Shown piece by piece: positions 1-6,234 of a stretch of 6,234 bases of DNA. The first letter of the stretch is position 1. Each line of letters begins with the position of its first letter. The stretch is taken from IMG/VR virus record IMGVR_UViG_2706794689_000012; one strand, written 5' to 3'. This DNA is from a virus. Its lineage: Duplodnaviria > Heunggongvirae > Uroviricota > Caudoviricetes. Below the pieces are notes generated by a model that saw only the letters and a program-made list of their open reading frames with translations, had not been told where the DNA came from and did not search any database. Made by a program: the position numbers and the translations under genes.

Positions 1-305
1 GGGTGATCGGCGTGTCATATTTCACTTCCGTACCCAGCACCGTCTCGGAGCCGGAGGATTCAAATCCCTCCGGCGGTGACTGCTCCTGCTCACCTGCCCG
101 GAACACCACCGTGACGCCGGAGATGTTGGTATTCCCCTCACTGTCCAGCACCGGCGTACTGTTCAGCAGCACGCTTTTTAATCCATCCACCGGACCTTCA
201 ACCGGCCCTTCGCTGATGGCATCGATCACACTCAGCAGCTGCGTGGACTTCAGGTTGTCCTTCGCTTCGCGCGGGGTATGCCCCTTACTGCTGCCTTTAC
301 CCATT
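1..305 (-). CDS. J: Tail tip fibre / host-specificity protein J, N-terminal 101 codons; gene continues past the window start
   Basis: Not in the ORF track because it runs off the window edge. Minus-strand ATG is the reverse complement of 303-305, with GGAG about 9 nt upstream. Translation reads MGKGSSKGHTPREAKDNLKSTQLLSVIDAISEGPVEGPVDGLKSVLLNSTPVLDSEGNTNISGVTVVFRAGEQEQSPPEGFESSGSETVLGTEVKYDTPIT with no stop to position 1. I recognise this as the lambda gpJ N-terminus from memory. Confidence 0.88.
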
Positions 306-364
306 CGTCATGCTCCATAAACGATAAAACCGCCCGGAGGCGATTTCACATAAAACATTTTGCA

Positions 365-1036
365 TCAGCGACCAATCACCACAACCTGACCACCGTCCCC
401 TTCGTCTGCCGTGCTGATCTCCTGAGATACCACACGTGACCCCACGCGCATTTCACCATACAGAACAGGCATAACATTGCCCTGGGCAACCATGTTATCC
501 AGTGAGGAGAAATAGGTGTTCTGCTTACCGTTATCCGTTGTCTGTGTGCGGGGAGTTCTGGCTTTCGGTGCCAGCATCTGAGCCACACCGCCGAGCACCA
601 TACTGGCACCGAGAGAAAACAGAATGCCGGTCATACCACCGGCACCAATGGCAGCCCCCCATGCTGCAAGGGTGGCTCCGGCGGTAAAGAATGATCCGGC
701 AATGGCGGCTGCTCCCAGGACAATCTGGAATACACCACCTGACTTGGCCCCGGCGACTCTGGGAACAATATGAATCACAGCGCCGTCAGGCAGAGCCTCA
801 TGTAACTGTGCCGTTAATCCGGACGTGCTAACATCCTGCCCGGCAATACGCACCTGATACCAGCCGTCGCTCAGCTTCTGACGAAACGCAGGGAGCTGTG
901 TGGCCATCGCCCGGATGGCTTCGGCACCCGTTTTCACACGAAGGTCGATGCGGCGGCCAAATCGTTGCAAATCCCCGTAAAGGCAGATGCGTGCCATGCC
1001 CGGTGACGCCAGAGGGAGTGTGTGCGTCGCTGCCAT
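365..1036 (-). CDS. I: Tail assembly protein I (223 aa): N-terminal ubiquitin-like beta-grasp region, Gly/Ala-rich hydrophobic C-terminal half
   Basis: Track ORF 365..1036 (-). Near-identical to lambda gpI as I recall it (MAATHTLPLASPGMARICLYGDLQRFGRRIDLRVKTGAEAIRA...). The C-terminal half carries glycine-zipper-like hydrophobic stretches (GAAAIAGSFFTAGATLAAWGAAIGAGGMTGILFSLGASMVLGG). The start lies 103 nt inside the 3' end of K in another frame. Confidence 0.92.
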   Translation of the reverse strand: MAATHTLPLASPGMARICLYGDLQRFGRRIDLRVKTGAEAIRAMATQLPAFRQKLSDGWYQVRIAGQDVSTSGLTAQLHEALPDGAVIHIVPRVAGAKSGGVFQIVLGAAAIAGSFFTAGATLAAWGAAIGAGGMTGILFSLGASMVLGGVAQMLAPKARTPRTQTTDNGKQNTYFSSLDNMVAQGNVMPVLYGEMRVGSRVVSQEISTADEGDGGQVVVIGR

Positions 1037-1596
1037 TTGTCGGTGTACCTCTCTCGTTTGCTCAGTTGTTCAGGAATATGGTGCAGCAGCTCGCCGTCAC
1101 CACAGTAAATGGCGGCATGATTCGGCACCGATGAACCAAAGCAGCACAGCAGCACATCGCCCGGCTGCGCCGCTGACAACGGCACCTGATACAGCCCTGT
1201 GGCCTCCAGATTATCCAGATAGAGATTCTGACCGTGACGCCACCAGTCATCCTCACGATGAAAATCCGGCATCTCAATCCCCGCCAGATGGTAAGCATCC
1301 CGGAACAGCGTGTAACAGTCCGTCACCCCGTGCTCAAAGCGCCGCCCGGTAAGATGTGGCACACAGCGGAACTTGTGAATCGCCCCCCGGCAGACCAGCC
1401 ACCACGGCAAATCACTCTGCACCTGCAGCTGCAGCCAGTCTTCCGGCGACATACGGAAATACGCCTCCGGCTCACCGGAGATATTCACGCAGGGGAAATA
1501 TCTTTCCCCCTCCGGCGTTCTTACCACGAAGCCGCACGACTCCGCTGGAGCACATCGCCGGGCGTGCGCCAGAATCGCTGATTCTGTCTCTGTCAT
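934..1596 (-). CDS. K: Tail tip assembly protein K homolog: NlpC/P60 C-terminal domain retained, MPN/JAB-type N-terminal region without a JAMM motif
   Basis: Track ORF 934..1596 (-), 220 aa. NlpC/P60 signature residues are present: Cys in GVTDCYTLFRDAY, His in VPNHAAIYCGDG, and the LLHHIP histidines. The N-terminal part has the conserved Glu (APAESCGFVV) but no H-x-H-x(n)-S-x-x-D motif anywhere. The first ATG (1594-1596) is 5 nt downstream of the L stop. An internal Met at 1450-1452 (MSPEDW...), which I believe is the classical lambda start, has GGAGG about 11 nt upstream. Confidence 0.85.
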   Translation of the reverse strand: MTETESAILAHARRCAPAESCGFVVRTPEGERYFPCVNISGEPEAYFRMSPEDWLQLQVQSDLPWWLVCRGAIHKFRCVPHLTGRRFEHGVTDCYTLFRDAYHLAGIEMPDFHREDDWWRHGQNLYLDNLEATGLYQVPLSAAQPGDVLLCCFGSSVPNHAAIYCGDGELLHHIPEQLSKRERYTDKWQRRTHSLWRHRAWHASAFTGICNDLAAASTFV

Positions 1597-1601
1597 GGGA
1601 T

Positions 1602-2300
1602 TTACTGCGAAAGTTTGTTAATGGAAAGGAAGCCGCCAAAGTTGCCGACGTTATGCGGAAACTTACAGCCACTCAGGCATTTGCTGCATTTATCCTTCGT
1701 GATGTCGGACGTTGGCTGGTCATATTCATCCGCGACCGCCGGACCGTGATAACCGCACTCATCGCCGCGATAGGTCCAGGTGCAGGTGTTGGCCAGCATG
1801 ATACGTCCCGGAAAAACAGCGCCATCTGTTTCCGTCGGCGTGGACAGTACAAAAGAGGCACTCACCGCGCTCAGTTCGCTGCACTGCTCAATGCGCCAGC
1901 GGCTGATCACCTCCTGCTCCGGATCGGCGTCACTGTTTCCGTTGACGAAGTTCACCGCATCCAGAAAACGGGCGTAAACCTTACGCCGGACCACCGTTCC
2001 GCCGACCAGACTCTGTAGATCTTCCGCCATCCCGGTGACCATACCGTACAGGTTAGAAACCGTCAGCGTGGGGCGCGTACTGGTGCCTTTGCCATTCAGT
2101 TCAAAACCACTCCCCTGAATGGGATACGGCTGATACTGTCGCCCCTGCCAGGTGACCGGCTCACCTTTTTCGTTCTGCTCATTACAGAAAAAATAACGTT
2201 CTCCACCGACCTCTGTCAGATCGATTTCCCAGAGCACCACGCTGGCCGACTGCTCCGCACGGGTGCATTCATTCAGTGTTTCCTGCCGGATATCCTGCAT
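1602..2300 (-). CDS. L: Minor tail (tail tip) protein L, 232 aa, lambda-type; Cys-rich C-terminus consistent with the Fe-S-binding gpL family
   Basis: Track ORF 1602..2300 (-). Near-identical to lambda gpL as I recall it (MQDIRQETLNECTRAEQSASVVLWEIDLTEVGGERYFFCNEQNEKGEPVTWQGRQYQPYPIQGSGFELNGKG...). Its ATG overlaps the stop of the upstream M fragment in a TGATG arrangement. Cysteines are in CTWTYRGDEC and DKCSKCLSGCK. Confidence 0.93.
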   Translation of the reverse strand: MQDIRQETLNECTRAEQSASVVLWEIDLTEVGGERYFFCNEQNEKGEPVTWQGRQYQPYPIQGSGFELNGKGTSTRPTLTVSNLYGMVTGMAEDLQSLVGGTVVRRKVYARFLDAVNFVNGNSDADPEQEVISRWRIEQCSELSAVSASFVLSTPTETDGAVFPGRIMLANTCTWTYRGDECGYHGPAVADEYDQPTSDITKDKCSKCLSGCKFPHNVGNFGGFLSINKLSQ

Positions 2301-2352
2301 CAGTTCACCACCTGTTCAAACTCTGCGCTGAACTCAACACGCAGCATACTGA
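2300..2352 (-). CDS. M: Minor tail protein M, lambda-type, last 17 codons only; the rest is in the masked block and probably 5'-truncated
   Basis: The reverse complement of 2300-2352 translates to SMLRVEFSAEFEQVVN followed by stop (TGA = reverse complement of 2300-2302). This matches the lambda gpM C-terminus as recalled. The stop shares one base with the L start codon. Confidence 0.6.
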
Positions 2353-2609
2353 NNNNNNNNNNNNNNNNNNNNNNNNNNNNNNNNNNNNNNNNNNNNNNNN
2401 NNNNNNNNNNNNNNNNNNNNNNNNNNNNNNNNNNNNNNNNNNNNNNNNNNNNNNNNNNNNNNNNNNNNNNNNNNNNNNNNNNNNNNNNNNNNNNNNNNNN
2501 NNNNNNNNNNNNNNNNNNNNNNNNNNNNNNNNNNNNNNNNNNNNNNNNNNNNNNNNNNNNNNNNNNNNNNNNNNNNNNNNNNNNNNNNNNNNNNNNNNNN
2601 NNNNNNNNN

Positions 2610-3249
2610 ACTTACAACCGCTCAGGCATTTGCTGCATTTATCCTTCGTGATATCGGACGTTGGCTGGTCATATTCATCCGCGACCGCCGGACCGCTATA
2701 ACCGCACTCATCACCGCGATAGGTCCAGGTGCAGGTATTAGCAAGCATGATGCGCCCCGGAAAAACAGCGCCGTCCGTTTCCGTCGGCGTGGACAGTACA
2801 AAGGAGGCACTGACCGCGCTCAGTTCGCTGCACTGCTCAATACGCCAGCGGCTGATCACCTCCTGCTCCGGATCGGCGTCACTGTTTCCGTTGACGAAGT
2901 TCACCGCATCCAGAAAACGGGCGTAAACCTTACGCCTGACCACCGTTCCGCCGACCAGACTCTGCAGGTCTTCCGCCATCCCGGTGACCATGCCGTGCAG
3001 ATTAGAGACTTTCAGCGTTGGCCTTGCACTGGCACCTTTGCCGTTCATCTCAAATCCACTCCCCTGAATGGGATAGGCCTGATACTGCCGACTCTGCCAG
3101 GTGACAGACTCTCCTTTCTCGTTCTGCTCATTGCAGAAAAAGTAGCGATCCCCGCCTACCTCGGTCAGGTCGATTTCCCAGAGCACCACGCTGGCCGACT
3201 GCTCCGCACGAATGCATTCATTCAGCGTTTCCTGTTGTATGTCCTGCAT
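2610..3249 (-). CDS. L: Second, diverged copy of minor tail protein L (L'); the 3' end, about 20 codons, lies in masked block 2353-2609
   Basis: The start of track ORF 2305..3249 (-) is real (ATG = reverse complement of 3247-3249). The 212 visible residues align without gaps to the L copy at 1602-2300 with 12 substitutions: R5Q, T13I, E34D, P48S, G53S, P58A, L67M, T72A, T74A, T79K, Y84H, H179S. The track's C-terminal residues after the X-run are an artefact of reading through Ns into the M fragment. Confidence 0.88.
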
Positions 3250-3376
3250 CAGATCACCACTTCGTCAAACTGACACGAAAAATCGGTATAGGTGATATGT
3301 TCTGTCGCTGACCACGTTCGACACACCACTCTGATTTTTCTGTTAATACCCGGCGGGCGCCAAAAAAAAGATTTAT
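3249..3376 (-). CDS. M: Divergent minor tail protein M homolog (M'), C-terminal 41 codons visible; the start lies in masked block 3377-3627
   Basis: The reverse complement of 3249-3376 translates to KSFFWRPPGINRKIRVVCRTWSATEHITYTDFSCQFDEVVI then stop. This aligns to the lambda gpM C-terminus (KSFLWTPPYEWRQIKVTCAKWSSRVSMLRVEFSAEFEQVVN as recalled) at roughly 45% identity. Its stop and the L' start overlap in TGATG, the same arrangement as M/L downstream. Confidence 0.68.
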
Positions 3377-3627: not shown

Positions 3628-5908
3628 CCGCTGATCAACCATCCCCATAAGTGCTTTTATTGCCTGAGGGCCAATCTCTCCATTCTGGCCGTCATTTTGA
3701 ATAGTGATTTGGTATACAGGGGCATAGGTAATATCTCCGCCTCCATTACCACTTTTACTATTAATAGCTCTGACACCAAGAGAACCATCGGAAGTTCGTG
3801 TTAATGGCATAATGGCTTCCGGTCCAGCCTCACCAAAAACACCAGCCCCTTTTGCAAAAGCAAAAAATTGCGGGGAATCATAAATACCGTTCGAATACGT
3901 GCTCAATGACGGAGACTCATAAACACCGCCCTTTGCATTCGGAATAAATTTACTAATAGCACTCCCGATAGTTCCTAAAATCCCCCCAGAAGAACTGTTA
4001 CTAATGCTGTCGAAAATCCCAGTAATTGAAGCCTTTAATGCTATTCGACTAAGATCCGAAATCACGGAAGTAGCGAAAGAACGAAAATTTGCCTTGCCTG
4101 TCGTGACAAAATCACCCAGCGCATCGGTCATCCCATCAAACATCTGAGTCGTGGTTGATTTTATCTGCTCACTGATATCCTTAGTGTCATCCAGCCAGTT
4201 ATTGAATCCCTGGGAGGCACCACTAACCCAGTCTCCTGCCTGAATATCGAGCTGCTCGTTTTTCTGTCTGACAATTTCTTTTTCCCGTTCCAGAGCATCA
4301 TTCAGAGCCTGCATTTTCTCTTGAAAAACATGATCTGACATTCCACGGGATTTATCTGCATAGTCACGTTCAAGTTGCAGACGCTGATTGTTATATCCAT
4401 GTTCAATCCGCAGTAATTCCTGCTGGCGTTGCTGATTTTTATCGCCAACCCCATAACCAGCAATCTGAATATCATACCCCTGCTGACGATTATCAATCGA
4501 AGCCTGCAATGAATCACGCCATGCTGTTATTTCGGCGGATTCCTTGATTAGCCTGTTATTTTTTTCAATCGCAACATTTTTCTCCATCAACGTGGTTATT
4601 TCTTCCCGGTGTAAGAGAAGCGATTTCTGATCCTGGGTTAATTTCGATGATGGTCGTGACTCTAGGTCGGCAATCCGCTGACGCCACTTAACCAGTTCCT
4701 GTTCAGAGGAACTTAATTTAACGGTCAACTCAGCTTGTGAACTTAGTAACGCATTCTGTTGATTCAGATGATCAATCATTCGTTGGGCTGCATCATCAGA
4801 ATAACCTTTCGCCTTTGGTTGCTTTGGATCTTTATAACGCTCATTTATTTGAGCGATAAGATTATTATATTCTTCCTTTGAATACTGATTCTTTAGCTTT
4901 TCCAGTTTTGCAAGTTCACTAGCTCTCTGCTGCTCCCGGGTCTGATATTGTTTTNNNNNNNNNNNNNNNNNNNNNNNNNNNNNNNNNNNNNNNNNNNNNN
5001 NNNNNNNNNNNNNNNNNNNNNNNNNNNNNNNNNNNNNNNNNNNNNNNNNNNNNNNNNNNNNNNNNNNNNNNNNNNNNNNNNNNNNNNNNNNNNNNNNNNN
5101 NNNNNNNNNNNNNNNNNNNNNNNNNNNNNNNNNNNNNNNNNNNNNNNNNNNNNNNNNNNNNNNNNNNNNNNNNNNNNNNNNNNNNNNNNNNNNNNNNNNN
5201 NNNNNNNNTTTTGATCAAGGGAGGCCTCACGGCCAATATCCAGCATGGAATCCCATGCCCATTTTGCGGAGTCTGCGACAGCTTTCCATGCAGTCTCAAG
5301 ATAACCAAGATTTTCTTTAATCTGGTTGGTGCGCTGGATCATTGAGGATGAGTATTCTTCTGTCGCAATGCGGGCGGCCTCCTGCTGGTTCCCTTCATCC
5401 TGTAGCGCCTTAATCTGGTTATAAGTCGCAAGTGTCAGAAAATGGTACTGATCATTAAGTTTTGATATGGCACTGACAGGATCCTTTGCAATTTCATTGA
5501 AGTCATTAACCAGTTGTTCGGTTGATATTCCTGTTACTTCGCTCGTTTTTACTATCGCTGTCGTCACTTGCTCCAGCGAACTGCTCGCTACCTTTCCCGA
5601 ACGCACAANNNNNNNNNNNNNNNNNNNNNNNNNNNNNNNNNNNNNNNNNNNNNNNNNNNNNNNNNNNNNNNNNNNNNNNNNNNNNNNNNNNNNNNNNNNN
5701 NNNNNNNNNNNNNNNNNNNNNNNNNNNNNNNNNNNNNNNNNNNNNNNNNNNNNNNNNNNNNNNNNNNNNNNNNNNNNNNNNNNNNNNNNNNNNNNNNNNN
5801 NNNNNNNNNNNNNNNNNNNNNNNNNNNNNNNNNNNNNNNNNNNNNNNNNNNNNNNNNNNNNNNNNNNNNNNNNNNNTAACACCATAAATGGCGACTGACC
5901 AGTGGACA
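3628..5908 (-). CDS. H: Tail length tape-measure protein (H-like), divergent from lambda gpH; interrupted by masked blocks, with start and stop both masked
   Basis: Three visible segments are homologous to lambda gpH in colinear order. 5877-5908 gives STGQSPFMVL (lambda AGGQSPWLIL, near the N-terminus). 5209-5608 gives ...QIKENLGYLETAWKAVADSAKWAWDSMLDIGREASLDQ (lambda LKENMGTLETWADRTARAFKSMWDAVLDIGRP). 3628-4954 is a coiled-coil-rich central and C-terminal region ending ...GQNGEIGPQAIKALMGMVDQR (lambda ...GTNGQIGPAALKAVYDMARKG). Base composition is visibly AT-richer than the L-K-I-J block. The reading frame of 3628-4954 differs from that of 5209-5908. Confidence 0.82.
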
Positions 5909-6161: not shown

Positions 6162-6234
6162 GAGCAATCAGACGTTGCAAAGCAACAACCTGTTCATCAT
6201 GCGCTTTTGCTGCTTCTCGCTCTGCCTGAGCCTC
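6162..6234 (-). CDS. Partial open frame upstream of the H-like gene: either the C-terminus of the preceding tail-assembly gene (G/GT position in lambda) or an N-terminal extension of H
   Basis: The reverse complement of 6162-6234 reads EAQAEREAAKAHDEQVVALQRLIA with no stop, in a different frame from the H-like segment at 5877-5908. By spacing relative to lambda gpH the H start should fall near here or just inside masked block 5909-6161. Only 24 codons are visible and I do not recognise them. Confidence 0.25.

Follow-up and report, generated by a model that had tools for sequence, protein, structure and literature searches.

The DNA analysed here, referred to throughout as the window, is 6,234 nt long and is the complete record CWUI01000206.1 from the Shigella sonnei draft assembly GCA_001249935.1; its proteins are named as S. 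sonnei by NCBI. The record is a scaffold of six pieces (2352, 767, 1327, 400, 32 and 73 nt) and five runs of N of 251-268 nt, the Ns being present in the public record as well. All genes lie on the minus strand, in the order J (of which only the start is included, running from about position 304 towards position 1), I, K, L, the final 52 nt of M (2301-2352), an N gap, another copy of the M end and L, M', and a tape measure gene. Two of the pieces, of 32 nt (5877-5908) and 73 nt (6162-6234), are islands of sequence among the N runs in the tape-measure region, and show that the assembly is fragmented here. What looked like a broken tape-measure gene at 4780-4893 proved to be an effect of how open reading frames had been listed, the frame being open back to the N gap, and we rejected it as a lesion.

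The I gene (365..1036, minus strand) codes for tail assembly protein I, with its N-terminal ubiquitin-like domain, and is intact by its match to Pfam Lambda_tail_I; the 190-aa form of the protein is identical to S. sonnei protein P0165, which is found on at least 1000 contigs. The neighbouring K gene (934..1596, minus strand), coding for tail tip assembly protein K, is an open reading frame of 220 aa with a Pfam NLPC_P60 match and a truncated Prok-JAB match, and equals a 247-aa S. sonnei prophage K from which residues 57-83 are missing. K and I overlap by 103 nt (934-1036), exactly the overlap present in phage lambda (14773-14875) and the one that the original prediction, made from the window's sequence, had expected. 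Beyond K, the L gene (1602..2300, minus strand) codes for 232 aa and, on comparison with its parent and with other alleles, carries a private change to which we return below.

Alignment of the K reading frame to lambda (NC_001416) gives a single clean gap of 81 nt, or 27 codons, present in lambda K and absent from the window. The gap falls exactly between two CTGCAG hexamers, where an in-frame loss of 27 codons had been predicted, and the missing residues are AEMQGEIVALVHSHPGGLPWLSEADRR; lambda does have a block containing HSHP...S..D between two LQ dipeptides at this point, as that prediction had supposed. On the minus strand, window positions 1417-1452 read ATGTCGCCGGAAGACTGGCTGCAGCTGCAGGTGCAG, translated as MSPEDWLQLQVQ, with CTGCAG at 1423 and at 1429, so that the junction CTGCAG|CTGCAG occupies 1423..1434 and the parental 81 nt are absent between 1428 and 1429. 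The letters at the junction are CTGCAGCTGCAG, and a longer stretch across it is GACTGGCTGCAGCTGCAGGTGCAG. In the S. sonnei parent the same site reads GACTGGCTGCAG, followed by the 81 nt deleted in the window (GCAGAG...GACCGGCGG) and then by CTGCAGGTGCAG; given that CGGCGG precedes the right-hand hexamer in this parent, exact microhomology at the junction amounts to 1 nt (G). The deletion is established by comparison with relatives and involves no statistical pattern, so a test against chance does not apply. That comparison is consistent across collections: all 30 of the matches listed from phage relatives (265 records matched) align to window K in two pieces that span 744 nt, against 663 nt in the window, and the same two-piece alignment over 744 nt is seen in all 40 of the matches listed from complete E. 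coli genomes (4,374 of 5,426 genomes matched).

The consequence for the protein is the loss of most of a metalloprotease motif. As given in the report on the AfJAMM structure (PMC300881), the JAMM motif is E-x(n)-H-S/T-H-x7-S-x-x-D, with the His and Asp residues serving as zinc ligands. Window K lacks H68-S-H70 and S78-x-x-D81 (in parental numbering, the latter being S78-E-A-D81 in the parent), no HxH occurs anywhere in its 220 residues, and its sole S..D is SPED at residue 50, which is unrelated to the motif. The Prok-JAB profile (PF14464) matches window K over positions 4-59 of 114 only, with 25.6 bits against a cut-off of 25, where the intact parent matches over positions 4-103 with 52.6 bits. 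The predicted absence of the motif is thus borne out, and so is the survival of the other parts that had been named with it. The N-terminal JAB/MPN remnant (1429..1596, minus strand; residues 1-56) keeps the invariant Glu19 in AESCGF (1528-1545). A C-terminal JAB remnant with the linker (LQVQSDLPWWLVCRGAIHKFRCVPHLT; 1348..1428, minus strand) corresponds by alignment to the last two predicted JAB strands of an intact model, at residues 92-96 and 99-103. The NlpC/P60 (C40) peptidase domain (1006..1347, minus strand; residues 84-197) is complete, matching Pfam PF00877 over profile positions 1-105 of 105 (E=4.5e-13) and keeping D93-C94, H160 and H172, all of which are invariant alignment columns. 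Considered as a JAMM/MPN+ protein, therefore, window K has the catalytic Glu (E19) but neither H-S/T-H, nor S-x-x-D, nor a full-length domain with its predicted fold; as an NlpC/P60 protein it retains the whole domain, conserved Cys and His included; and as a TAPK protein it has the gene position, between L and I and upstream of J, and the K/I overlap but not the two-domain architecture of JAB plus NlpC/P60. Judged on sequence and position, we take the gene to be a K gene by descent, but a damaged copy of one.

Homologues and structure prediction indicate how serious the damage may be. We aligned 20 full-length homologues, the most distant at about 68% identity; HSHP and S..D do not vary among them, nor does E19, and this invariance in 20 of 20 sequences argues that the HSHP...S..D block is under constraint wherever K is functional. 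An AlphaFold2 model of an intact 247-aa homologue (P0011) has block pLDDT values of 68-94 over residues 1-104, most blocks reaching 85-94 and two blocks over residues 71-90 standing at 68. Its secondary structure runs from a helix (3-15) through strands (21-27 and 30-35), a helix (51-60), a strand (62-70) and a helix (79-88) to two strands (92-96 and 99-103). Foldseek matches the N-domain of this model to JAMM deubiquitinases (Pyrococcus JAMM1, Rpn11 and CSN5) and its C-domain to the NlpC/P60 enzymes MepS and Acd33800. Mapped onto the model, loss of residues 57-83 would remove the end of a helix, the whole of the central beta-strand with H68-x-H70, the loop that follows and the start of the helix bearing S78-x-x-D81. 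With these go the three zinc ligands of the JAMM site together with its Ser; NlpC/P60 is left unaffected, and so is I downstream of it. The model of window K, generated from the same alignment, has pLDDT values of only 29-52 over its first 80 residues. The fall from 85-94 in the intact protein to 29-52 in the deleted one suggests that the JAB domain of window K is most likely unable to fold, and that we are dealing with a broken domain rather than with a folded but catalytically dead JAB.

The parental allele can be identified with precision. It is the 247-aa K of an S. sonnei prophage (P0150, named 'C40 family peptidase [Shigella sonnei]', for example in CP104423.1 1301817-1310389, locus L006:3261-4004), with which window K shares all 220 retained residues, the gene order L-K-I-J and an identical I protein, and from which the window differs by the absence of residues 57-83 (81 nt), by three synonymous SNPs and by a +C/-A pair in L. 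An exact look-up of the window I protein places the same prophage in complete chromosomes of about 4.82 Mb (L006-L008), and window positions 1-2352 equal L006 2505-4937 except for the 81-nt deletion, the three SNPs and the cluster at 1655-1657. The three SNPs (at 2062, 1141 and 1045) were considered as signs of error; two lie in K and leave its protein unchanged, the one in L goes unseen in the L protein comparison, and since they are synonymous and the same bases occur in other alleles they are uninformative. In one of the complete chromosomes (L007, GCA_040188945.1, 4634-8130) the J gene is split into open reading frames of 183 aa and 982 aa, from which it follows that the parent prophage is decaying elsewhere in S. 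sonnei.

The parental K is common and the window allele is not. The 247-aa protein is recorded from at least 1000 contigs of S. sonnei, and the 220-aa protein from a single contig among some 15 billion proteins. The 81-nt junction has no exact match in GTDB representative genomes, IMG/VR or JGI metagenomes, and a short junction-centred megablast, in which only carriers could seed a match, found no carrier among 5,426 complete E. coli genomes. In the L gene, on the minus strand at 1655-1657, the window has AAGTTTCCGCATAAC against AAGTTTCGCAATAAC in the parent, in lambda and in all other alleles inspected, turning FRNNV into FPHNV; this +C/-A pair is absent from all 5,426 complete E. coli genomes, and the exact window L protein is a singleton, with the parental L on at least 1000 contigs. 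Only 225 nt separate the pair from the K deletion junction.

The remainder of the scaffold is of a different origin. A gap of 257 N (2353..2609) joins the piece carrying the parental-type M end, L, K, I and J to a piece from a different prophage, beginning with a second, divergent copy of the M end and most of L (2610..3271, minus strand), which is 90% identical to 1602-2322. In the upstream half of the scaffold stand L', M' and a tape measure unlike that of lambda, and nothing in this half matches the H-M genes of the parent. Given two copies of M-end/L at 90% identity, and an upstream half that departs from the parental H-M region, the scaffold is chimeric and joins two different prophages.

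Is the window allele alone in having lost this part of K? A protein search turns up a number of K proteins that are 216-219 aa long, with identities of 94-98%. Five cluster representatives (P0006, P0007, P0008, P0010 and P0017) are K proteins of 218 aa with a deletion of 87 nt (29 codons) that read ...EDWLQ|VQSD..., and two of these alleles show GACTGGCTGCAGGTGCAG in their DNA, as expected if slippage had occurred between two direct repeats of 9 bp, GGCTGCAGG, that stand 87 nt apart. These E. coli prophage alleles resemble window K in that the same JAMM segment is lost in frame at the same CTGCAG repeats, in that the Glu and the NlpC/P60 domain are kept, and in that the Prok-JAB match is likewise shortened, here to profile positions 3-59. 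They differ in having lost 29 codons exactly between the GGCTGCAGG repeats, with one copy left (WLQ|VQSD), where the window has lost 27 codons and kept both hexamers (WLQ|LQVQSD). They differ also in occurrence, since some of them are found in 2-4 assemblies (the P0007 allele is common to 4), whereas the window allele is unique. We located two carriers of the 87-nt deletion in E. coli drafts (L004 10001-10657 in GCA_012124935.1 and L005 10001-10657 in GCA_033747535.1). The head genes of the two carrier prophages differ, one set being the lambda-like E/D/FI/FII and the other a ClpP-fusion capsid type, and in both the head and tail clusters are apparently complete. As the 87-nt deletions are borne by distinct K alleles, and the prophages around them differ in their head genes, they arose independently. 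A junction-centred megablast found no 87-nt junction among the 5,426 complete E. coli genomes.

Deletions in K are not confined to this pair of repeats. Other in-frame deletions remove the motif in P0014, P0019, P0052 and P0073, the last being a 178-aa protein on a 56-kb Shigella sonnei contig in which a different internal deletion, GEPD|GGLPWLSEADRR, takes out the HSHP strand. In-frame deletions also affect the NlpC/P60 half of the protein, in P0059, P0095, P0105, P0085 and P0111. Going by these sequences, the picture is one of scattered and rare decay alleles with a mutational hot spot at the repeats, not of a JAB-less class maintained by selection. A more ambitious reading of the same alleles is that the JAMM segment of lambdoid K is a module lost recurrently and independently (by 81, 84 and 87 nt among others, giving proteins of 220, 219 and 218 aa), at the CTGCAG repeats or close to them, in prophages that otherwise look intact, the JAB isopeptidase being dispensable or its loss favoured in resident prophages and the NlpC/P60 half carrying the essential part in tail assembly. 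We think this very improbable; if it were true, the prediction that the JAB domain of K processes the ubiquitin-like domain of I could be tested directly with these alleles.

What, then, produced the window allele? To our minds there is about an even chance that one S. sonnei isolate carries a private in-frame deletion of 81 bp in K, produced by illegitimate recombination or slippage and likely to abolish function. In the K gene of a widespread lambdoid prophage of S. sonnei, CTGCAG/GGCTGCAGG repeats flank a stretch prone to deletion, and illegitimate recombination or slippage there would have cost K its 81 bp in a single isolate. The resulting allele would most likely have lost its function, one more step in the decay of a resident prophage, and would not be a K that works without its JAB. 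Loss of function is likely because lambda K is needed for tail assembly and because the motif is invariant in functional relatives. Several observations are in keeping with a real deletion: the junction lies inside the 2,352-nt piece, which is free of N, and not at a gap; the same stretch is prone to deletion in real genomes, as the 87-nt alleles on varied allelic and phage backgrounds attest; and the parent prophage is decaying elsewhere in the species, as seen in the split J of L007. Against it stand an allele recorded once in a highly clonal species, a chimeric six-piece scaffold with a second private change close by in L, and a microhomology of only 1 nt where a 9-bp repeat, the one exploited by the recurrent 87-nt deletions, was at hand.

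The principal competing explanation is that the isolate has a normal 247-aa K and that the 81 nt were lost in the assembly, scaffolding and gap-filling of short reads from several near-identical lambdoid prophages. We put the chance of this a little below even. The scaffold is short (6,234 bp), with five N runs and with islands of 32 and 73 nt, and it is chimeric, having the M-end/L stretch twice at 90% identity. Moreover, a second private change, L's +C/-A pair, is seen at a distance of 225 nt, and poor local assembly would account for both changes more easily than two independent mutations; the window K and L proteins are both singletons with parents on at least 1000 contigs each, and the 81-nt junction is absent from every collection scanned. 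Yet De Bruijn assemblers rarely invent junctions that have no supporting reads, and had overlapping sequences simply been merged on the 9-bp repeat, the loss would have been 87 nt, not 81. Nor does the junction adjoin an N gap, and comparable in-frame deletions in K are inherited in other genomes. The comparisons show the deletion, its uniqueness, the parental allele and the loss of the motif; beyond this we infer, as the slightly likelier case, an event in the cell rather than in the assembler, with probable loss of K function.

The original prediction had gone further, proposing a JAMM-dead variant in which the predicted relationship between the JAB domain of K and the ubiquitin-like domain of I would be uncoupled. 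Put in functional terms, tail-tip assembly would need NlpC/P60 only, K could do without the JAMM segment or even be favoured for lacking it, and K would be released from processing the ubiquitin-like domain of I. The reading frame is kept, the NlpC/P60 domain and I are intact, 87-nt losses of the JAMM segment have arisen independently more than once, in prophages with seemingly complete sets of head and tail genes, and in the lambda tail literature we found no experimental test of the JAB site of gpK. However, the HSHP...S..D block is invariant in all of the aligned full-length homologues, neither junction occurs in the 5,426 complete E. coli genomes (14,703 K matches), and neither deletion is seen among the phage matches listed, all of which align in two pieces over 744 nt. 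In other singletons the NlpC/P60 part is also hit by in-frame deletions, which gives the set a general look of decay; the remnant N-domain is predicted to be unfolded; and a one-in-three chance of staying in frame requires no selection. We regard a functional, selected JAB-less K as very unlikely, and a biologically meaningful variant with K and I uncoupled is not supported, the allele being a singleton from a clonal species, on a chimeric scaffold with five gaps, with an invariant motif lost and a fold predicted to be broken. We conclude that the 81 nt were lost either by a private deletion that destroys function in a decaying prophage or through an assembly artefact, and that window K is not an evolved JAB-less form.

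Other routes to the junction fare worse. A two-step origin, with an 87-nt slippage deletion (WLQ|VQSD) followed by tandem duplication of CTGCAG (WLQLQVQSD), is attractive in that the 87-nt allele is repeatedly present and the window differs from it by just one extra CTGCAG, but it calls for two rare events in one singleton lineage where a single 81-nt event is more parsimonious, and no 87-nt-deleted K on an S. sonnei background is found among the matches; it seems to us scarcely believable. Restriction and religation at PstI sites (CTGCAG being the PstI site) was rejected, as it would take out 87 nt rather than 81, with a single site remaining, and so was simple slippage between the 9-bp repeats, which yields the 87-nt deletion of other genomes. 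A parent carrying CGGCAGCTGCAG, as in E. coli E200086, would have offered a 4-nt microhomology (GCAG), but the true S. sonnei parent has CGGCGG.

Whether deleted in a cell or mis-assembled, window K itself matters little: the prophage gene is very common, and this is one damaged or wrongly assembled copy. It does, however, carry a caution for short scaffolds and repeat-rich prophage regions in draft Shigella and E. coli genomes, where private oddities need to be checked against reads before new protein variants are called. There is also a modest lead, in that natural in-frame deletions that excise the JAMM core, above all the recurrent 87-nt deletion, could serve as reagents for asking if the JAB activity of gpK is needed in lambda tail assembly.

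The closest characterised system is lambda itself, whose gpK (NP_040598; JAB plus NlpC/P60) is needed for tail assembly and is undetected in virions (PMC12617516, PMC10721106). The window shares with lambda 96-98% nucleotide identity over L-K-I, the 103-nt K/I overlap and the order of domains, but lambda K keeps the HSHP...SEAD block that window K has lost. Lambda gpK is annotated as 199 aa from MSPEDW, and from the equivalent Met49 to the stop window K has 172 aa, both figures being those that the original prediction had compared. The lambda reference (J02459/NC_001416, and also OR474059 and OR974322) lacks one G (GGAGGC-TATTTCC) that is present in the window and in the other aligned K genes (lambda 14247-14288, equivalent to window 1450-1475), and the form without this G occurs in none of the 5,426 complete E. 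coli genomes. The missing G puts the first 48 codons of K, including that for the JAMM Glu, out of frame, and this accounts for the 199-aa annotation; the gene is not genuinely shorter. The missing G itself, at lambda 14,266, is either a sequencing error of 1982 or a frameshift of the laboratory strain.

A second comparison is with the K proteins surveyed by Iyer, Burroughs and Aravind in 2006 (PMC1779556), who predicted that the JAB domain of K releases the ubiquitin-like domain of I, and who suggested that versions of K with NlpC/P60 only are degenerate variants typical of integrated prophages. Window K has in common with these NlpC/P60-only TAPK versions (PMC1779556) that a K-like protein without a working JAB stands beside TAPI. 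They differ in extent: the NlpC/P60-only versions are without the whole JAB domain, while window K retains about three-quarters of the JAB sequence, with the catalytic core excised. Degenerate, JAB-less prophage K proteins have thus been known since 2006, and window K is a damaged copy of a known gene.
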